A DNA stretch of 45,686 nt. It comes from a virus. Lineage: Duplodnaviria > Heunggongvirae > Uroviricota > Caudoviricetes. The stretch lies in IMG/VR virus record IMGVR_UViG_2718217885_000013; one strand, 5' to 3'. The notes below the pieces were generated by a model. The model saw nothing but the letters and a program-made list of their open reading frames with translations. It did no database searches and was not told the DNA's origin. Positions within the stretch are counted from its first letter, which is position 1; every line of letters starts with the position of its first letter. A program made the position numbers and the translations under genes. Of the stretch, positions 1 through 45,686 are shown in pieces.

Positions 1-750
1 TCAGTCAATTGTTTTGTTTATTCCATCTGTGACGCCGATTATTTTCTCAAAATAATGAGATGGCGTGACACCATAATAATCTTTAAATGCACATATGAAA
101 TATGAAGTACTGTTATAGCCACATTTCTGGGCTACGACATTGATAGAATAAGAGTTTGAAGTTATGAGTTTTTTTGCATACCTCATCCTAGTATCTCTCA
201 ATATTTCAGTAAATGACGTTCCTTCATCCCTTAATCTTTTTTTTATTAAACTTTCACTCGTATAAATCAATTCCGCAATATCTTTTAAATGCCATTGCCG
301 CTCAATATTAAAACTGATTATTCCAGTAATTTTACAGGTAAATGTATTTATATTTGTTAGTATAAATGAATTTACACTTTCGCGTTTTTTGAACATGGCA
401 AGTAAGGATATACATAGTCTTTCTTTTAACCAAAGGGAGTGTGAGTCTGCTATTTTAATCCCTTCAAACAGAGAAAAAACAAGCGATAATGGAGGTTCCT
501 CTTCAGCAATATAGCCATTCTTATCAAGAGTAAATTTGCCAGGCAGCTCATTATTCACGTCGATAAAAAAGGATAAACATGTTTTCTTATCTATATCAAC
601 AATTCTTAGTTTAGAGGGGCATACTGGTAACTCCCTTCTAATTTTGTCGCTTACAATAAACAATGAATTTTTTTTGAACGAGATAACTCTCCTGTTTATA
701 ATTAAATCAAATGATTGACAGATGAAAACTACGGAGCAAACATAATCCAT
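1..750 (-). CDS. appY: AraC-family transcriptional activator AppY
   Basis: 249-aa ORF whose translation ([22 protein letters not shown]...) matches remembered K-12 AppY; C-terminal AraC-type HTH; sits beside tfa/ybcY as in DLP12. Confidence 0.85.
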
Positions 751-1340
751 CTTGCACCTATCATAAAATTAAAACAAGTTGATAGTAGTCAAATAACAAC
801 CAATTAAATACACAATCATAATCAGGATGATGTGCATTTATATTTTTATACACAAAATTATAGTTTGCAAATTTTAATAAATTTCATTTAAGATTAAATT
901 ATTATATGTATGTTGTTTTTTATTCTAACTTATTTCAAAGTTACATTTTTCAACGCTTACTATGCTTTTTATTAACATAAACTCACTACAACGCACCTGA
1001 AACCTCTTGCTATATATATGTCAACCGTTTGAATTTAAAATAAAAAGAGTATCATTTTTACTTGCATTTCTTATCAAGTCACATTCAACAACAGTAAAAA
1101 AACATTATTAGAACCATTCAATTAACAAAAAACCAACATCCAGCTTGCTTAATTTTTCTTTATTAAACGATATTGAAAATCAATTGATAAAATACATCTA
1201 AACAACCTTTTGGGGCGCAAAAGCATAACATCAAACAAACAAATAACACACCGAAAAAACTCACAATTAATAACCTATGATATACATACTGTTTATTATG
1301 GTTGAATAAGCCACTCGATATCTGGTGCTACGGAAGTGTC
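751..1340. promoter_or_regulatory. AT-rich upstream region of appY with no ORF of 60 aa or more; probable promoter/silencing region
   Basis: About 590 bp of strongly A/T-rich sequence directly 5' of appY on the minus strand; function inferred. Confidence 0.3.
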
Positions 1341-1451
1341 CACACGGTTTAGCAGCACCCGATACTTTTTTCAGGCTTCCAGCAACGATCTTTCTTCCTC
1401 CGTTGCGATTTCCAGATCTACAGCATCCTGCAGTGGCGCAATATACTCACT
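1341..1451. repeat. Direct repeat copy 1 (tfa 3' segment), about 110 bp
   Basis: About 90 percent identical to 2389-2500 by eye (cacggtt.agca.cacccgatacttttt.caggcttccagcaa...ccgttgcgatttccagatctacagcatcctg). Confidence 0.7.
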
Positions 1452-1556
1452 GAATTCCTGGATGTAGAACTGTGTGGTGACGGTCTTCCAGCCATTCGGC
1501 TCCTGCTGTATTGAAGCATACCAGGCTATTTCAATATCGCTATGCTGCGGCAGCAT
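1371..1556 (-). pseudogene. Tail fibre assembly protein fragment (tfaX-like remnant)
   Basis: 61-aa ORF whose C-terminus ([23 protein letters not shown]) duplicates a segment near the C-terminus of the full tfa at 2335-2919, with an unrelated N-terminus. Confidence 0.6.
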
Positions 1557-1695
1557 TTAACCCCTTGTAATTCATTGCCATAATTGATTTAATTCACAAA
1601 TAAAACTATAACATGGTGAAATTAATAAAAAAAACACAGATGATGGGGCTAGAATTTACACACCACTTACCCTAAAGCTTTATGACTGGTGGGTT

Positions 1696-2280
1696 TTGGG
1701 AGTATCAAATCGGCTTGCATGGGGATGTCCTACAAAGGAACACCTTCTTCCACACTTTCTGGAACATTTAGGTAACAACCATCTGGATATTGGTGTTGGA
1801 ACTGGGTTTTACCTTACTCACGTACCTGAGAGTAGTCTGATATCTTTAATGGATTTGAACGAAGCTAGCCTGAACGCGGCATCTACAAGGGCTGGGGAAT
1901 CAAAAATTAAACATAAAATTAGCCATGATGTTTTTGAACCTTATCCCGCGGCGTTACATGGTCAATTTGATTCCATTTCCATGTTTTACCTTCTTCACTG
2001 CCTGCCTGGAAATATATCTACAAAAAGCTGTGTAATACGCAATGCGGCGCAGGCCTTAACTGACGATGGAACTCTATACGGAGCCACAATTCTTGGCGAT
2101 GGAGTTGTGCACAATAGCTTCGGTCAAAAACTGATGCGCATTTACAATCAGAAAGGCATCTTTTCAAACACAAAAGATTCCGAAGAAGGCTTAACACATA
2201 TACTCTCAGAGCATTTCGAGAATGTTAAAACCAAGGTTCAAGGTACTGTAGTAATGTTTTCCGCTTCAGGGAAAAAATAG
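1696..2280 (+). CDS. ybcY: Putative SAM-dependent methyltransferase (YbcY-like); start is TTG with no in-frame ATG near the 5' end, so possibly disrupted
   Basis: 194-aa ORF with a glycine-rich motif I-like segment (LDIGVGTGFYL); same position as the ybcY pseudogene in DLP12; the first codon of the track ORF is TTG. Confidence 0.45.
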   Translation: MGVSNRLAWGCPTKEHLLPHFLEHLGNNHLDIGVGTGFYLTHVPESSLISLMDLNEASLNAASTRAGESKIKHKISHDVFEPYPAALHGQFDSISMFYLLHCLPGNISTKSCVIRNAAQALTDDGTLYGATILGDGVVHNSFGQKLMRIYNQKGIFSNTKDSEEGLTHILSEHFENVKTKVQGTVVMFSASGKK

Positions 2281-2287
2281 CATCCAA

Positions 2288-2320
2288 CCGCAGCACGTTC
2301 TTGCTTAAGACGTGCTGCGG
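2288..2320. terminator. Perfect 11-bp inverted repeat between the convergent ybcY-like and tfa genes
   Basis: ccgcagcacgt-(11 nt)-acgtgctgcgg; a T-run follows on the minus strand after a short spacer. Confidence 0.45.
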
Positions 2321-2334
2321 CATAATCCCAATGA

Positions 2335-2919
2335 TTACTCCCTGACAGGGTTCGTAGGCCACTCAATATCAGGTGCAGTTGATGTATCAACACGGTTCAG
2401 CAACACCCGATACTTTTTCCAGGCTTCCAGCAATGAGGTTTCTTCCTCCGTTGCGATTTCCAGATCTACAGCATCCTGAAGTGGCGCAATATGCTCACTG
2501 GCTACCTGCATCAGGCTGTTTTTTATTTCTTCCGCCTCCCGGATCCGGAACAGTTTTTCTGCTTCTGCATCTTTCACCCAGGCTGTGCCGTTCCACTTCT
2601 GAAACTCCCCTTCCGGCGATAACCAGGTAACATTTTCCGGTAACGGACCGAGTTCAGAAATAAATAACTCGTCCCCTGACGCTACGTCATAAACCGTTTT
2701 ACCCCGATGGTCTTCAACGAGATGCCACGATGCCTCATCACTGTTGAAAACAGCCACGAAGCCAGCCGGAATATCTGGCGGTGCAATATCGGTACTGTTT
2801 GCTGGCAGACCTGTATGAGGCGGAATATATGCATCACCTTCACCAATAAATTCATTAGTTCCGGCCAGCAGATTATAAATTGTTATGGTCCGTGGTTGTT
2901 CACTCATTCTGAATGCCAT
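2335..2919 (-). CDS. tfa: Tail fibre assembly protein Tfa
   Basis: 194-aa translation recognised as lambda/e14-type Tfa; directly downstream of stf. Confidence 0.9.
2389..2500. repeat. Direct repeat copy 2 (within tfa)
   Basis: Partner of 1341-1451. Confidence 0.7.
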
Positions 2920-5900
2920 TATGCAAGCCTCACAATATAGTTAAATGCGATGTTTTTGACGGTGTTTTCCGCGTTACCAGCAGCGTTAACGGTGATGGTG
3001 TGTCCATGTGAGCCAATCGCAACGGAGTGCGTATGAGCACCAATACCGACAGTATGTGCGTGTGCACCTGCGCTTGCAGCAGTACCCGATACAGAGTGCG
3101 TATGAGCGCCTGCAGAAGAAGTGTTAACACTGTATTTAGAATAATCAGGTGATCCACTTCCCGGAGCACCACTGGAACCACCTGAAACAAATGTCATCGA
3201 ATGGGTATGTGCACCGGCTGAAGCAGCCGTACCGCTAACACTATGGGTATGTGCACCAGTGTTATTCGTGGATTTAGTGCCGTAATCAAACGATGATGTG
3301 GTTTTCGTCCCCAAATCCGTACTGGATGCGCTGGCGCTGTGGGTGTGCGATTTAATGCCGTCCTGTTCCTGAGACAATACGGCACGACCACTGGCGGGCT
3401 TGCCCTTAATCGTCCAGCCACGCATATCAGGAATAACGCCTGACGGATAAGCCACTGCAAGTTTCGGGTATGCAGATTTGTCAAAAGTCTGCCCCTGCAT
3501 CAGGGCATAGCCAGACGGAACGGTATCTGATGGCCACGGGATTGGTGCGCCGACTGGGTAGCTTTCTGGTGGAAGATTTTTCGAGGTATAAACTTCTGCC
3601 CAGTCATCCTCAAAACCATAACCGTCTCTTGAAGAACGGTAGAACAGACCACCATTTCTGTAATGCGCCTTCATCTGCAGGGTCCGGCAACTTCCGACTC
3701 CGGTATAGAAGTTAACCAGAATATAGCTGTCGCCAGAGCGAGTGACATTGTAAGCGCCTGATTCGGCATTCCATGGAACGCCACCATCCGCATCGGCATA
3801 TGTATCCGTTGCCCTTCTGGCAAAAGCAGCCACATGCGCGGCGGTTAAAGTAATATCTTTGGAACCATCAAACTCAACACCAGAAACCCGTCTTGGCGTT
3901 TGCAGCTTTGTTGCTGTTAATGCATTACCGTTCAGACTTGCGGACAGTTTGGTTCCAATAACCAGTTCGCCGGTTGCGTTATCAATAGCAAACGGTCTTA
4001 ATGTATTCCAGCCACCATAAACATCACCTTGATTGGTAAGCAGCAGGTAAGTTTTAGCGCCATCATTACGCCATAATGCACCATACTCTCCACCTATCAT
4101 TCGAATCTGATTACCACCACGCGCTACAATTTCGTCTGTGGCAAAAAGTTTTTTGCACGACAAGTTATCGTTAACGATTAACGAATGAGACTCATAAAAA
4201 CCACGCCCACTCTTAAAATCAAGGATAACGTCCGCCGCGATACATTCAGTCGCTGGATTTGTTGCCCCAAACTTATAGGTCGTATCATTAACAACGAGAT
4301 CAGCACCAGGTGCGGATATTGACAGGCCATCTTCGATAAACGCAAAAACAGGGAAAGCAGCGCCATCAACATAGAACACAGAGCGCAAATCATCGCCCTT
4401 ATTACTCATCATTATTGAGTGGATGGCTCGTTCATTGTTTTGATATTGCCAGAACATTCCATAAGCATAACGCCCCCTGTCAGTCCAGCCACCAGGCATA
4501 ACAAATCCGTTAAACTCGCAGTTATTCATCGGATCGCCTGCGGTTCGCGTTGCCGTGGTGATAATGACCCTTGATGCCAGTTCGCTTACTGAGCCAGCAG
4601 AACGCATAACAACAACAGGGTAATATTTTCCAGATGTTGCACCTGCAGGAGCGTTAACCCGCACATAACGCATACCACGCTTATCAGCAAAGTCTGTTTT
4701 ACTGACCGCGTTAATGTTGTTCAGGAAGCGTCCCTTATCGGGTATATCAGTGCCGTTCTGGTCTTTCTGCAGACGTTTCTCTGCATTGTCATAGGCTGAT
4801 TTTACTGCCTTTGGCGTTGCCGCCAGCGTTTCAGACGTACTGTTGGTCGCACTGCTGAGCTGTACTATCCCCTTTTTCGTCGTGCTCGCATCCTCAAGCG
4901 CCACGGCGGATGCAATATCCTCTGCCCGTTTTGCTGCTGTCTCGGCGCGCGTTGCCGCGGATTCCGCCGTACTTTTGCTCTGAGCTGCCGCCGTCGCACT
5001 GCCAGCTGCCTCTGTCGCCTTCGTGGATGCCGTCGTGGCGCTGCCCTTCGCTGCTGACGCCTGTCTGGTCGCCTCATCTTTTGAAGCAGACGCCGATGAT
5101 GCCGATGACGCCGCCGAACTGGCTGACGATGCGGCAGCCGTTTTTGAGGATTCTGCGCTGGTTTCCGACGCTTTCGCGTTCGTTTCGGATGTCTTCGCTG
5201 CGGAAGCTGACCTCGCTGCTACCGTGGCCTGTTCAGTGGCTTCGCCAGCCTTCGTTGTGGCTGTTGAAGCGGATGATGCGGCGCTTTCTGCCGACTTTCC
5301 GGCAGCGGTGGCACTGGCTGAGGCCTGCCCGGCATTTGTTGACGCGGCGCTGGCAGATGAGGCAGCCGCTGTTTTTGAGTCTGCTGCTGCGGAGGCACTC
5401 TGTCCCGCTGCCGTCTCAGAAGACTTTGCGTTCGTCTCGGACGTTTTTGCCGCCTTCGCGGAAGTTCCTGCCGCTGTTGCCGAGGAGGCTGCACGACTGG
5501 CGCTCGAGGCTGCGTTCGTTTCTGATGATTTCGCTGCCTCTTTTGAAGCCGACGCATCCCTGGCTGAAGTGGCTGCTTCTGACGCTTTCGTGGTCGCGGT
5601 GGATGCAGAAGTGGCTGCTGATTGTTGTGACGCTGCCGCATTCGTTTCTGACGTTTTCGCCGCACCGGCACTGGTAGCCGCCGCGCTTTTTGAGGACTCT
5701 GCAGCGGCAGCACTTTTTGATGCTTCAGTGGCCTTTGCTGATGCCGTTCCTGCGCTGGAAGACGCTGACTGAGCAGATGATGCAGCCTGTCCGGCTGACG
5801 TGCTGGCGGCACGTGCTGAGCCTGCAGCATCGGTTGCATGGGTTGCCGCCTCACGGGCAGATGTGCTGGCATCACTGGCTGACTTCTTCGCGGCTGCCGT

Positions 5901-6269
5901 GTTCTGTGCCACTGCGGACGCGTTACGCGCCACCTCTTCCACCATCAGTTCAAAACGGCGCAGTGCCTCCGGACGGGCATCATCCTCCGTCATGGCACCG
6001 AGAAAATCATTCAGCGTACCGGGTTGAGAATCTTCATACACGGTAATGGTCCCGGCATGTGACGGCGGGAATCCTTCCACCAACAGAATAACGCTGTACT
6101 GACCGTACTCAACGTCCATGCTGTAACGCCCGGCTTCATCCGGATTTTCTGAGGCCAGCGTGTTCACCACCACCGTGGTGCTGTTACGTTTTGCTTTCAG
6201 CTGGATTGTGCAGTTCTGTACCGGTTTTCCTGTGCCGTCTTTCAGTACACCTGAAATCTTTACTGCCAT
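2919..6269 (-). CDS. stf: Side tail fibre protein Stf
   Basis: N-terminus [27 protein letters not shown] matches lambda Stf; long Ala/Ser/Thr-rich central region; C-terminal GAHTHS repeats; ATG at 6269 is two codons inside the track ORF, which begins with GTG. Confidence 0.9.
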
Positions 6270-6280
6270 ATTCACCCCAC

Positions 6281-6307
6281 AAAAAAGCCCGCCTGAACCG
6301 GCGGGCT
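6281..6307 (-). terminator. Intrinsic terminator after lom, immediately upstream of the stf start
   Basis: Minus-strand AGCCCGCC-GGUUCA-GGCGGGCU followed by UUUUUU. Confidence 0.6.
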
Positions 6308-6333
6308 GTCATAACACTGTGTTACCTGGCTAA

Positions 6334-6933
6334 TCAGAACTTATAACCGACACCCACGATGAAACCGTCAGTGCGCCAGTCGCCACTGCCGGAGCCTTCA
6401 TAAGCAATATCAATGGCCACGGATTCGGTCGGGTTAAACTGCACGCCAGCTCCCCACGCCAGAGACGTGTTGCTGTGGCGACCGTCATCACTTCCGGTCA
6501 GCACATCGTGCGTTTTCCCCTTGTTGTCAGTTACGCGAAGATAATCCCCGGAGAAAGTCGACACACGGCTGTAAGCCACACCCGCCATCGCATACGCGCT
6601 GAACCATTCATTCACGCGCACAGACGGCCCCGCCATCACGCTGAACCAGCGGTTACGCACGGAATCTTCATGCCAGCGGGTATCGCTGTAATGGGTCAGC
6701 TGGCGATTCTTGTCTCCTGCATAGCTGAATGACGTCACCATCCCCAGTGTGTCCGTAAACTCATAACGGTATTTCACGTTAATCCCGTTCAGATCATCGC
6801 TGCCGGGAACGTTCGTCGAGGCATGAAGATACCCCGCGCTCAGCGTGGACTGATGTTCAGACGCCCATGCAGGCGCACCGGATACGGCCAGACAAATGGC
6901 TGCGGACAAAATGGCGGCATAAAGTTTACGCAT
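6334..6933 (-). CDS. lom: Outer membrane protein Lom (Ail/Lom family)
   Basis: 199-aa ORF with signal peptide and beta-barrel-type sequence; canonical position after J. Confidence 0.9.
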   Translation of the reverse strand: MRKLYAAILSAAICLAVSGAPAWASEHQSTLSAGYLHASTNVPGSDDLNGINVKYRYEFTDTLGMVTSFSYAGDKNRQLTHYSDTRWHEDSVRNRWFSVMAGPSVRVNEWFSAYAMAGVAYSRVSTFSGDYLRVTDNKGKTHDVLTGSDDGRHSNTSLAWGAGVQFNPTESVAIDIAYEGSGSGDWRTDGFIVGVGYKF

Positions 6934-44324: not shown

Positions 44325-44667
44325 GGCCTGTCAGTTTCTTAAGATATCCAGACCAACCGCCACCAACTGGATACGAACAGGCCGCCTACAGGCAACACGT
44401 AAAGATCCAACCAAGCCAAAATCTCCTTACCTCACAACACGGCAAGCCTGCATTGCGGCGCTTCAGTCTCCGCTGCATACTGTCCAGGTGAGCGCGGGTG
44501 ATGGCATAACAGAGGAAAGAAAATGTCACTCTTCCGCAGAAATGAAATATGGTATGCCTCGTATTCGCTCCCGGGCGGGAAACGAATTAAGGAATCTCTT
44601 GGCACAAAGGACAAGCGGCAAGCTCAGGAGTTGCACGACAAGCGAAAAGCAGAACTCTGGCGAGTAG
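44296..44667 (+). CDS. xis: Excisionase-like HTH protein; 3' end overlaps int, true C-terminus uncertain
   Basis: [31 protein letters not shown] is a typical Xis/AlpA-type HTH; GAGG Shine-Dalgarno; immediately upstream of int. Confidence 0.6.
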
Positions 44668-45686
44668 AAAAGCTAGGGGATTTACCTGATGTCACTTTTG
44701 AAGAGGCCTGCCTAAGATGGCTTGAGGAAAAAGCTGATAAAAAATCTCTCGATTCAGATAAAAGCCGGATTGAGTTCTGGCTTGAACATTTTGAGGGTAT
44801 AAGGCTTAAAGATATCTCGGAGGCAAAGATTTACTCTGCTGTAAGCAGAATGCATAACAGAAAGACGAAAGAAATATGGAAACAGAAAGTTCAGGCCGCC
44901 ATCAGGAAAGGTAAAGAACTGCCTGTTTATGAACCAAAGCCAGTATCAACTCAGACAAAGGCAAAGCATCTTGCCATGATAAAGGCCATTCTCCGTGCTG
45001 CAGAACGCGACTGGAAGTGGCTGGAAAAAGCGCCTGTCATCAAGATACCAGCGGTCAGAAACAAGCGAGTCAGATGGCTGGAAAAGGAGGAAGCAAAACG
45101 CCTTATTGATGAGTGCCCCGAACCACTGAAATCTGTCGTCAAGTTTGCGCTGGCAACTGGTCTGAGAAAGTCGAACATCATAAATCTGGAATGGCAACAA
45201 ATCGACATGCAGCGACGAGTTGCCTGGGTGAATCCAGAAGAGAGCAAATCAAACCGCGCCATTGGTGTGGCGCTGAACGATACCGCCTGTAAAGTGTTGC
45301 GTGATCAAATAGGCAAGCATCACAAATGGGTGTTTGTACATACCAAGGCGGCTAAGCGAGCAGATGGAACATCAACGCCTGCGGTCAGGAAGATGCGCAT
45401 CGACAGCAAGACATCATGGCTATCAGCTTGTCGTCGTGCAGGAATTGAAGATTTCCGTTTCCATGACCTCAGACACACCTGGGCAAGCTGGCTGATCCAG
45501 TCAGGCGTCCCATTATCTGTGCTTCAGGAAATGGGCGGATGGGAGTCCATAGAAATGGTTCGTAGGTATGCTCACCTTGCGCCTAATCATTTGACAGAGC
45601 ATGCAAGGAAAATAGACGACATTTTTGGTGATAATGTCCCAAATATGTCCCACTGTGGAATTATGGAGGATATAAAGAAGGCGTAA
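44523..45686 (+). CDS. intD: Tyrosine integrase (DLP12 IntD-like)
   Basis: 387 aa; C-terminal catalytic residues (R...HDLRHTWAS...Y); translation matches remembered IntD; stop at the window edge. Confidence 0.95.

Follow-up and report, generated by a model that had tools for sequence, protein, structure and literature searches.

Direct repeats of tail-fibre assembly gene 3′ ends flank the methyltransferase gene ybcY in a DLP12-type Escherichia coli prophage

Gene organization of the tail-fibre end

The window, the whole stretch of 45,686 nucleotides analysed here, belongs to a lambdoid prophage of the E. coli DLP12 type, whose tail-fibre end is the region studied. Over 2250 nt, it shows 100% identity with E. 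coli 09-00049, in which envY-ompT-appY lie beside this region. Along the direction of late transcription (window minus strand), the order reads stf, an intact tfa, a hairpin, the convergent ybcY, the relic tfaX, an AT-rich spacer and appY. The tfaD-ybcY-tfaX-appY segment is already annotated in K-12 MG1655 as tfaD (b0561), ybcY (b0562, pseudogene), tfaX (b0563) and appY, within 'cryptic prophage DLP12'; the arrangement is thus known, ordinary phage mosaicism and not a new scar.

The side tail fibre gene stf (2919..6275, minus strand) encodes 1118 aa with phage_tail_N, Gp34_trimer, Collar and Phage_fiber domains. Its ORF ends at 2919, where the tail-fibre assembly gene that serves it starts on the same strand. 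This intact tfa (2335..2919, minus strand), the equivalent of tfaD, encodes 194 aa annotated as tail fiber assembly protein WP_065225538 and matches Pfam Caudo_TAP (PF02413) at E=1.7e-44 (151.6 bits, cut-off 22.1), covering profile positions 1-130 of 131. Tfa proteins combine a conserved C-terminal domain with a variable N-terminal fibre-binding domain (PMC9608196, summarising North et al. 2019). Beyond stf, the ORFs of the window continue to an integrase-sized ORF at the far end.

The opposite end of the region holds appY (1..750, minus strand), a cargo gene at the prophage tail-fibre end whose 249-aa ORF encodes an AraC-type activator; both K-12 and the RefSeq record NZ_CP015228, which is 100% identical to the window here, annotate it as appY. 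A spacer of 25% GC (751..1295) separates appY from the tfaX relic, and the tfaX/appY interval of K-12 contains an H-NS-marked RpoD site (Shimada 2014, PMC3946193).

The ybcY gene, its product and its neighbours

The gene ybcY (1613..2280, plus strand; phrog_2132) encodes a class I SAM-dependent methyltransferase and is present in the window as a start-loss/frameshift allele. The original prediction had described an ORF with a TTG start and no in-frame ATG, possibly disrupted; the ORF list indeed opens it at TTG 1696, and its 5′ end is damaged, the true ATG having lost its G. This is the second ATG, the start of the PHROG profile and of most YbcY homologues (218 aa), and the missing G lies at 1626/1627, directly before an A8 run (1627-1634). 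Intact alleles read ATGGTGAAATTAATG-A8-C and the window reads …TTAAT-A8-C. The first ATG is out of frame and meets TAA after 20 codons, and the remainder of the protein is identical to the common 222-aa form at 214 of 217 positions. Judged from this start region, YbcY is most likely not made in the window; RefSeq rescues the gene with an ATT start, by which some translation is possible.

The one-base lesion sits at a homopolymer, where assembly errors arise; among the matches listed, the exact 108-nt window (A8) sequence is common to nine independently assembled genomes. Start alleles were read directly from alignments, which gave G+A8 (intact) in phages and Combat11I9, G+A7 in NCTC86, A8 in the window and A7 in K-12. 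The '>=99%' BLAST band admits one difference in 108-109 nt, so that band counts are not exact-allele counts, and only listed 100% rows were used for the A-tract alleles. The NCTC86 gene lies at a different prophage locus and possibly carries a long-read homopolymer error. In CT30, the first ATG is replaced by ACG.

A candidate sigma-70 promoter, TTGATT-17-TATAAC (1584..1612, plus strand), ends one base before the first ATG. In K-12, the same ybcY element lies at a genomic-SELEX RpoD site with H-NS (PMC3946193), and we infer that it is used, although a generic consensus promoter scan did not list it. Downstream, the 54-bp gap between the convergent stop codons of ybcY and tfa contains a GC-rich hairpin (2288..2320), a candidate bidirectional terminator with folding energies of -23.9 kcal/mol on the plus strand and -28.5 kcal/mol on the minus strand (z = -5.7 and -5.5). 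Because no T run adjoins it, this hairpin went uncalled in the terminator scan.

The YbcY sequence scores above the cut-offs of Pfam Methyltransf_12, 23, 25 and 11, and in its motif I, DIGVGTG, the D, two G, the T and a G are invariant and the V nearly so across 34 homologues. An AlphaFold2 model with a pLDDT of 90.5 matches solved methyltransferases with a Foldseek probability of 1.00; the best matches are small-molecule or lipid methyltransferases, with TM scores of 0.55-0.67 spread over O-, N- and C-methyltransferases. YbcY is accordingly predicted to be a class I SAM methyltransferase of the small-molecule or lipid type. No named subfamily or substrate emerged from sequence, NCBIfam, PDB and fold searches: the best NCBIfam hits scored 17 bits against cut-offs of 175-180, the PDB sequence search gave matches only at E >= 1e-3, and PHROG 2132 is labelled 'unknown function'.

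Relatives of YbcY with 56-65% identity are encoded in Enterobacter, Yersinia and Erwinia as ordinary chromosomal genes with no phage genes nearby. Hydrolase genes lie near ybcY relatives in phages, Enterobacter and Erwinia. A functional link between YbcY and an alpha/beta hydrolase was considered and rejected, since the hydrolase of the phages bears no relation to the esterase of Erwinia (E=0.8) and their proximity is therefore coincidental.

Of 5426 complete E. coli genomes, 3797 contain the 871-bp ybcY cassette at a coverage of >=80%, with up to 4 copies each, and 14 phage records contain it at full length. Both flanks of the cassette vary. Towards tfaX, appY gives way in the phages to alpha/beta hydrolase-ompT, followed by an integrase in 2G7b and Turner. 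The neighbour towards tfa is a complete tfa, a stub of it, or a pin-like recombinase together with further small genes ahead of tfa; the recombinase is located between ybcY and tfa in phage Turner (L007 5916-6506) and strain EC596 (L023 5416-6006). The EC596 slot also holds ydfK and a YnaM/YnfT-family gene, whereas the window slot holds ybcY alone, and CT30 retains a minimal ompT-ybcY remnant in which ybcY is intact. GC content is 40.9% in ybcY, 48% in tfa and 53% in stf. In this deviant GC, and in its variable occurrence between genes that lie side by side in relatives, ybcY resembles a moron.

Direct repeats, the tfaX chimera and recombination

A repeat search returned one direct-repeat pair, 1307-1463 and 2355-2511, with a length of 157 nt, an identity of 86% and a spacing of 1048. 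The left copy (1307..1451, minus strand) consists of codons of the tfa C-terminal domain and includes a perfect 40-bp core at 1391-1430, and the right copy (2355..2499, minus strand) is the natural 3′ end of the intact tfa. An ungapped count gives 127 of 145 identical positions (87.6%) between them, rising to 102/111 (91.9%) for the repeat core 1341-1451 versus 2389-2499, which bears out the direct repeats of ~110 bp and ~90% identity originally proposed. The proposed inner edge at 1451 and 2499-2500 also holds, and the outer edge lies ~35 nt farther towards appY than claimed. Identity drops outside the repeats to 34% on the inner side (1452-1556) and 26% on the outer side (1200-1295). As a background, 20 shuffles of 751-3000 gave best 145-nt diagonals with 60-68 matches, at most 68/145 compared with the 127/145 observed; the repeat is therefore real.

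The 18 differences between the copies are split 3:3:12 over codon positions, and the 12 at the third position form the pattern of diverging coding alleles. Caudo_TAP matches both copies, and the derivation of the repeats from tail-fibre assembly genes is thereby confirmed. The evidence supports the two repeats being the 3′ ends of two tail-fibre assembly alleles.

The left copy lies in the tfaX relic ORF (1296..1556, minus strand), which joins a 5′ part derived from phrog_3893 to a 3′ part derived from tfa. It is interrupted by a TGA at 1371-1373, where the tfa copy has TGG; the ORF list gives 1371-1556, and RefSeq annotates 1296-1463 as a pseudogene, 'tail fiber assembly protein, internal stop, missing N-terminus'. 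The ~35 codons of the 5′ part (1452..1556, minus strand) are non-tfa and match phrog_3893 at 3.2e-07 over residues 3-37. This 79-aa family of unknown function is present at full length in Klebsiella phage Kp4882-3, and the TfaX N-terminus is 51% identical to residues 1-37 of the 79-aa ORF there. TfaX residues ~30-86 match tail-fibre assembly families, so the fragment beside ybcY is the chimera that had been predicted. The tfaX frame matches Caudo_TAP at E=1.4e-23 over profile positions 75-130 of 131 only, with no alignment over the phrog_3893-derived 5′ part, and the whole chimera matches phrog_2341 at 4.9e-58. With its N-terminal fibre-binding domain absent and its reading frame interrupted, TfaX fails to qualify as a full Tfa protein. 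Literature searches for tfaX and tfaD returned unrelated acronyms only.

RefSeq places a plus-strand pseudogene, 'DinI family protein', at 1458-1538 (Ecol_448, ESY002). Its peptide has no Pfam match at E<=10, and minus-strand phrog_3893 is the better account of this interval.

Compared with the phage copies, the window tfaX is identical at 90/90 positions over 1391-1480 and at 59/84 over 1307-1390, which indicates that the distal tfaX is itself mosaic. The founding junction, at about 1451/1452, appears from its flanking sequences to be an illegitimate join of a non-tfa gene to a tfa gene. The locus had been interpreted as a scar of recombination between tfa paralogues; exchange between tfa 3′ ends stands, with two recombinants described below, and the founding join is not a paralogue crossover. 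Full-length phrog_3893 genes lie upstream of a UmuD-like gene, with neither ybcY nor tfa within 3 kb. A pre-fusion state, with a whole phrog_3893 gene adjoining ybcY or a whole second tfa, was searched for and not found.

Strains with the single-repeat state, the proposed check on recombination, do exist: a synthetic single-repeat junction aligns as a single 653-bp piece in nine genomes, where tfa directly adjoins the appY spacer. WGI31CT is of tfaX type up to 1390 (111/111) and of tfaD type from 1431; its hybrid includes the TGA of tfaX, and the annotation reads 'internal stop'. In CFIAFB20190172 the switch falls at about 1345/1346, and the hybrid tfa is intact. Since these two genomes have different crossover points inside the repeat, the repeats do recombine. 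SFE8-type genomes have a single tfa, a third allele adjoining the appY spacer, and could represent the ancestral state rather than deletions.

Origin of the arrangement and comparison with known systems

We consider it very probable that the locus is explained overall as a DLP12-type tail-fibre end combining a tfa homology patch, the chimeric tfaX and cargo ybcY. Observed here are the two repeats, the chimeric tfaX, the distribution of the cassette, the single-repeat recombinants and the ybcY start lesion. The order of founding events is inferred, because the pre-fusion arrangement was not found, as are the recombination pathway, promoter use and loss of expression. The right repeat is the ordinary 3′ end of the working tfa gene, and the left repeat is the same Tfa domain as encoded by another tfa allele. 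An old illegitimate join would have fused the last ~50 codons of that allele in frame to the first ~35 codons of phrog_3893, creating a cargo slot between a whole and a truncated tfa. Conserved among otherwise different phages, the tfa 3′ end acts as a homology patch for ordinary homologous recombination, probably of the RecA or Red type, and the module therefore stands beside different neighbours. The distal part of tfaX has itself been exchanged, and occasional recombination of the two repeats deletes ybcY.

The direct orientation of the repeats, the position of the cargo exactly between them and the existence of single-copy genomes would also fit an in-situ duplication, in which a transposition-like or copy-choice insertion of ybcY into a single tfa duplicated ~150 bp of its 3′ end and the copies then drifted. 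We regard this as very unlikely: 18/145 differences with a 3:3:12 bias point to two separately selected coding alleles and not to a dead duplicate, and at its inner edge the left copy continues, in frame, into foreign phrog_3893 coding sequence rather than into ybcY sequence. The locus has no transposase and no terminal inverted repeats (inverted repeats in 1-6000 are weak, 71-78% complementary), and at least two single-copy genomes are hybrids of both window copies, hence deletions and not empty sites. We give almost no credence to a remnant of an invertible tail-fibre switch of the Mu G, P1 C or e14 P type, with tfaX as the alternative tfa′. The relatives Turner and EC596 do have the pin-like recombinase between ybcY and tfa, but the two tfa ends are direct rather than inverted, the interval from appY to stf is free of recombinase genes in the window, and tfaX is not accompanied by an alternative stf C-terminus. 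The Turner repeats are direct as well (146 nt, 84%), with no long inverted repeats around the segment, and neither inverted crossover sites nor a second stf C-terminal exon beside tfaX was seen in the relatives.

Rfam RF02111, 'IS009', matches the minus strand at 2378..2576 with 227.9 bits against a gathering score of 117, wholly inside tfa coding sequence, and a second match at 1330-1533, in the tfaX copy, reaches 110 bits and falls below that score. Matches to both repeat copies on the same strand would suit a small-RNA gene present twice and conserved for RNA function. This reading is scarcely plausible, as both hits are contained within the tfa reading frame and share its coding strand, the protein family match reaches E=1.7e-44, the repeat differences are biased to third codon positions and several pairs of the IS009 model are broken in the tfaX copy; the agreement with IS009 is purely formal, since what it covers is tfa coding sequence. 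Four ybcY alleles within 9 nt raise the prospect that the gene varies in phase by A8 slippage, the window allele being an OFF phase rather than a dead gene. We judge this quite improbable. The window lost the G of its ATG at unchanged tract length, slippage restores the frame of the first ATG and not of the preferred start, and a homopolymer error in long reads could account for the NCTC86 variant. Moreover, A7 is exact in 60/60 records listed, almost all of them K-12-derived laboratory strains, and no A9 or longer allele occurs among the matches listed, the best A9 match being 99.1%.

In a more ambitious reading, which we hold to be unlikely, the tfa/truncated-tfa pair would be a maintained 'cargo slot', and YbcY a selected, host-benefiting methyltransferase whose expression is toggled by mutation at an ATG-A8 hotspot. 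Were it true, lambdoid phages would take up, exchange and lose genes of lysogenic conversion (ybcY, pin, ydfK) through homologous recombination at the conserved Tfa C-terminal coding segment. Slot variability, natural deletions, wide retention of ybcY and clustered 5′ lesions are all observed. The retention cited for selection on YbcY comprises ~70% of E. coli genomes and the intact gene in the CT30 remnant.

Two database artefacts can be flagged, the Rfam IS009 model, which is tfa coding sequence, and the RefSeq ATT start that rescues ybcY. The K-12 names can likewise be explained: tfaD denotes a real chaperone gene, and tfaX a chimeric relic with no gene family of its own. In both K-12 and the window, ybcY is a start/frameshift mutant of a cargo methyltransferase gene whose intact form most E. 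coli and active phages carry. The locus offers a natural example of a conserved chaperone domain serving as a recombination patch beside host-range genes; its significance beyond this bookkeeping is small.

The closest known system is DLP12 of K-12, in which tfaD (b0561), ybcY (b0562), tfaX (b0563) and appY (b0564) share gene order, strands, spacer and appY flank with the window. The chimeric tfaX is alike in both, with an identical TGA, and ybcY is damaged at the same 9-nt spot, although K-12 has A7 and is two bases short and the window has A8 and is one base short. The structural genes are gone from K-12, whose tfaD is consequently a 5′-truncated fusion beside aaaD, whereas the window keeps the 194-aa tfa and the 1118-aa stf. 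Temperate coliphages (2G7b/ev243 'Nesevirus', PhiR26_1, Turner and others) carry tfa or a stub, ybcY and tfaX with 99% identity over the 871-bp cassette. Unlike the window, they have an intact ybcY (222-aa ORF), and the distal ~85 nt of their tfaX is a different allele. Whereas the window copy of tfaX has the TGA, PhiR26_1 and Turner keep the gene as an open reading frame of 101 aa, and that of 2G7b lacks 7 bp.

Morons of lambdoid phages, a concept of Juhala and Hendrix, offer a further comparison. Moron-like in ybcY are its single extra gene, a candidate promoter of its own and hairpin, lower GC, presence or absence among relatives and transcription against the late operon. Unlike morons, it stands between two direct copies of a 145-bp stretch from a neighbouring gene's 3′ end, which makes it removable by homologous recombination. 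Mosaic tail-fibre/tfa modules, such as lambda Stf/Tfa, P2 H/G and Mu S/U, are exchanged among unrelated phages, as was reportedly described by Haggard-Ljungquist in 1992, Hendrix and Duda in 1992 and Sandmeier in 1994. A comparison with a lambda Tfa sequence gave 93% identity, a figure that we do not use as evidence. Those modules and the window share a conserved Tfa C-terminal segment across divergent alleles, with breakpoints in or next to it. The window differs in having this segment twice, in direct orientation within one genome, with natural intramolecular recombinants between the two copies.

Direct repeats and the chimeric tfaX relic

Over its first 6.3 kb, the window carries a minus-strand tail-fibre operon heading towards position 1. 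The operon comprises a side tail fibre gene (stf; 2919-6275, -; 1118 aa), with phage_tail_N, Gp34_trimer, Collar and Phage_fiber domains, and a tail fibre assembly gene (tfa; 2335-2919, -; 194 aa; Caudo_TAP, E=1.7e-44). Beyond these lie a methyltransferase ORF (ybcY, +) ending at 2280, a 61-codon ORF (the tfaX relic; 1371-1556, -), a spacer of 25% GC and appY (1-750, -). The Ala/Ser-rich central part of stf (4800-5900, -) consists of imperfect 21-nt-periodic repeats (families D1-D4) and gives long spurious ORFs of 255, 249 and 218 aa in other frames on both strands. A 45-aa ORF (2225-2362, -) that crosses the inter-gene hairpin, overlapping the ybcY and tfa ends, is probably also spurious; RefSeq names it 'hypothetical protein' (WP_001309429.1), and its counterpart in other genomes is labelled 'nucleocapsid protein'. 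The sub-threshold Rfam match to CssrB over the hairpin (2289-2351, -; 32.6 bits versus a gathering score of 76) probably reflects the stem-loop alone.

A repeat search revealed one direct-repeat pair (1307-1463 and 2355-2511; 157 nt, 86%). The original prediction had placed it at 1341-1451 and 2389-2500, where an ungapped count gives 102/111 identities (92%); the inner boundary holds, and the true repeat is somewhat longer than reported. Across 1307-1451, which contains a perfect 40-bp core (1391-1430), the copies match at 127 of 145 positions, above the maximum of 68/145 in 20 shuffles of 751-3000, and identity beyond the repeat edges falls to background on either side (26-34%). Derivation from tfa 3' ends is likewise borne out: the right copy forms the normal 3' end of intact tfa, and the left copy also translates in frame, as a tfa allele. 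The 18 nucleotide differences fall at 12 third, 3 first and 3 second codon positions (chi-square ~9, 2 degrees of freedom, p ~0.01), a bias that fits two alleles diverging while both coding rather than a duplicate decaying in place. According to a passage of one paper summarising North et al. 2019, the domain encoded by the repeated segment stays conserved in Tfa proteins that diverge elsewhere, and the N-terminal fibre-binding domain is variable (PMC9608196).

In the TfaX read-through, residues 31-86 alone align to Caudo_TAP (Pfam; profile positions 75-130), and residues ~30-86 match tail-fibre assembly PHROGs. By tblastn, the first 37 residues share 51% identity with the start of an unannotated 79-aa ORF of Klebsiella phage Kp4882-3 (3004-3243 of its locus) and 75% identity with part of a truncated ORF of phage Ayreon. 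The 79-aa protein and TfaX residues 3-37 both match phrog_3893, a PHROGs family of unknown function, and TfaX taken whole is phrog_2341. As had been proposed for the tfa fragment beside ybcY, tfaX is, judged by sequence, a chimera with its first 37 residues of non-tfa origin, joined at ~1451/1452 between …IQEF and SEY….

Full-length phrog_3893 genes (79 aa; Klebsiella, Raoultella, Citrobacter) lie directly upstream of a UmuD-like (S24 peptidase) ORF, at 3004-3571 in Kp4882-3, where the two ORFs overlap, and around 3001-3620 in loci L024-L029; the pair may constitute a small operon. The pre-fusion state, searched for at these full-length loci, was not found.

In the window and K-12, tfaX carries TGA (1371-1373) where tfa has TGG. 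Phage 2G7b and Ecol_448 have, instead of this TGA, a 7-bp deletion (AGATCTA; alignment columns 233-239, equivalent to ~1414-1420 within the perfect core), and the frame is open in PhiR26_1 and Turner (101 aa). That tfaX has been inactivated repeatedly and independently speaks for its being a relic. The 7-bp deletion counts as a third, independent kind of damage to the gene.

Start lesion of ybcY

The YbcY model adopts a confident Rossmann-type fold (pLDDT 90.5), with the closest solved folds (TM 0.55-0.67) being juvenile-hormone acid, phosphatidylethanolamine, phosphoethanolamine, NodS and natural-product methyltransferases; no named methyltransferase subfamily fits in NCBIfam or PDB sequence searches. 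Relatives with 56-65% identity are ordinary chromosomal genes in Enterobacter, Yersinia and Erwinia, which, along with a GC content of 40.9%, fits ybcY being a captured bacterial gene.

Intact alleles, carried by phages 2G7b, PhiR26_1 and Turner, strain Combat11I9 and most genomes, read ATG GTG AAA TTA ATG AAA AAA AAC…; the window reads …TTA AT- AAA AAA AAC, having lost precisely the G of the second ATG. The PHROG profile starts at that codon (residues 5-222 aligning to profile positions 1-218), homologues are mostly 218 aa long, and ACG replaces the first ATG in strain CT30. The promoter published for K-12 ybcY, TTGATT-17-TATAAC (PMC3946193), has a matching motif in the window that ends at 1612, one base ahead of the first ATG, so a normal transcription start would fall downstream of that codon. 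Together, these features identify the second ATG as the real start. The first ATG is out of frame in the window and meets a stop after 20 codons, bearing out the suspected 5' disruption. Since the remaining protein is identical to the common form at 214/217 residues, the lesion is recent.

The identical RefSeq record annotates the start-loss gene as intact (NZ_CP015228, GJ12_RS04620; 1621-2280, +; 219 aa, WP_071961356.1) with an ATT start at 1621, which we regard as an annotation convenience; the A7 allele of strain CLSC36 is marked 'frameshifted'. K-12 ybcY is two bases short (A7). In NCTC86, at a different prophage locus (L037, ~1660-1670), ATG is followed by A7, not A8, and the gene is annotated 'frameshifted'; this is either another independent mutation of that homopolymer or an error of long-read assembly. 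Phase variation of ybcY is not supported: the window lesion takes out the start codon, no alleles longer than the intact form were seen, and A7 is exact in 60/60 records among the matches listed, nearly all of them laboratory strains derived from K-12.

Recombination and probable mobility of the module

A synthetic single-repeat junction (1100-1451 joined to 2500-2800) is matched as one 653-bp piece by nine genomes, including two clear hybrids. WGI31CT follows tfaX without a mismatch up to 1390 (111/111) and is tfa from 1431 on, placing the crossover within the 40-bp core; its hybrid carries the tfaX TGA and the RefSeq label 'internal stop'. CFIAFB20190172 switches at ~1345/1346, and its hybrid tfa is intact. 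With their different crossover points, the two hybrids represent separate deletions of ybcY by homologous recombination. In SFE8-type genomes a third tfa allele occupies this position, which leaves their history ambiguous. The observation stands, and the original interpretation was essentially right.

The 871-bp inter-repeat cassette is present at a coverage of at least 80% in 3797/5426 complete E. coli genomes, with at most 4 copies each, and 14 phage records carry it as well. On the tfaX side, phages have an alpha/beta hydrolase and ompT in place of appY, and in 2G7b and Turner the integrase comes next. On the tfa side, the window and PhiR26_1 have an entire tfa and Ecol_448 has a 120-nt stub of the gene, whereas in Turner (4850-6650 of its locus) and EC596 (4684-6006) a pin-like serine recombinase with further small genes precedes tfa; the EC596 slot also holds ydfK (cold-shock-like) and a YnaM/YnfT-family gene. 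CT30 retains a minimal DLP12 remnant (2403-5380 of its locus) composed of ompT, ybcY, a tfa fragment, an int fragment and argU (tRNA-Arg). Its ybcY is intact (218 aa) though nearly all phage genes are gone, a survival that hints at selection for ybcY. Window and phage tfaX agree at 90/90 positions over 1391-1480 and at 59/84 over 1307-1390; exchange within the conserved segment has therefore affected the distal end of the relic as well.

In-situ duplication of the tfa 3' end around ybcY is disfavoured, being opposed by the codon-position bias and by the foreign fusion partner of the left copy. A remnant of an invertible tail-fibre segment is excluded for the window, where the tfa ends are direct and there is no invertase; the pin-bearing relatives Turner and EC596 have no obvious invertible segment, and in Turner the tfa repeats, with 2771 nt between them, keep their direct orientation. 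The repeated unit could also be read as Rfam RF02111 'IS009', a putative sRNA that matches both copies (227.9 bits at 2378-2576, -; 110 bits at 1330-1533, -), but the matched sequence is the coding strand of tfa, in its 3' half and more weakly in the tfaX relic, and the family looks like tfa coding sequence, not an RNA gene.

In the likeliest scenario, the tail of a second tfa allele was long ago joined illegitimately to a fragment of a phrog_3893 gene. With an entire tfa and its cargo upstream, the fusion would have left a slot that has sequence encoding the conserved domain at each end. Ordinary homologous recombination at the conserved segment would then have moved the module among lambdoid phages, swapped its flanks and, now and then, deleted the cargo. 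We infer both this founding order and the recombination pathway.

Relation to the K-12 DLP12 locus

Positions 751-3000 are 100% identical to E. coli strain 09-00049, with envY, ompT and appY as flanks there. The remainder of the window (6334-45686) contains densely packed large ORFs, ending in a 387-aa ORF (44523-45686, +) that we take, from its size and position, to be the integrase. By ORF layout, the strain seems to harbour a full-length DLP12-type prophage, unlike the K-12 remnant. The K-12 MG1655 annotation holds the same gene string, tfaD (b0561), ybcY (b0562, pseudogene), tfaX (b0563) and appY (b0564), in the cryptic prophage DLP12; the locus described here thus corresponds to one already known from K-12, in a full-length prophage. 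To this known tfaD-ybcY-tfaX arrangement, a textbook case of tail-fibre-region mosaicism, the analysis makes modest additions: where tfaX came from, the precise lesion in ybcY, and single-repeat recombinants that occur in nature.
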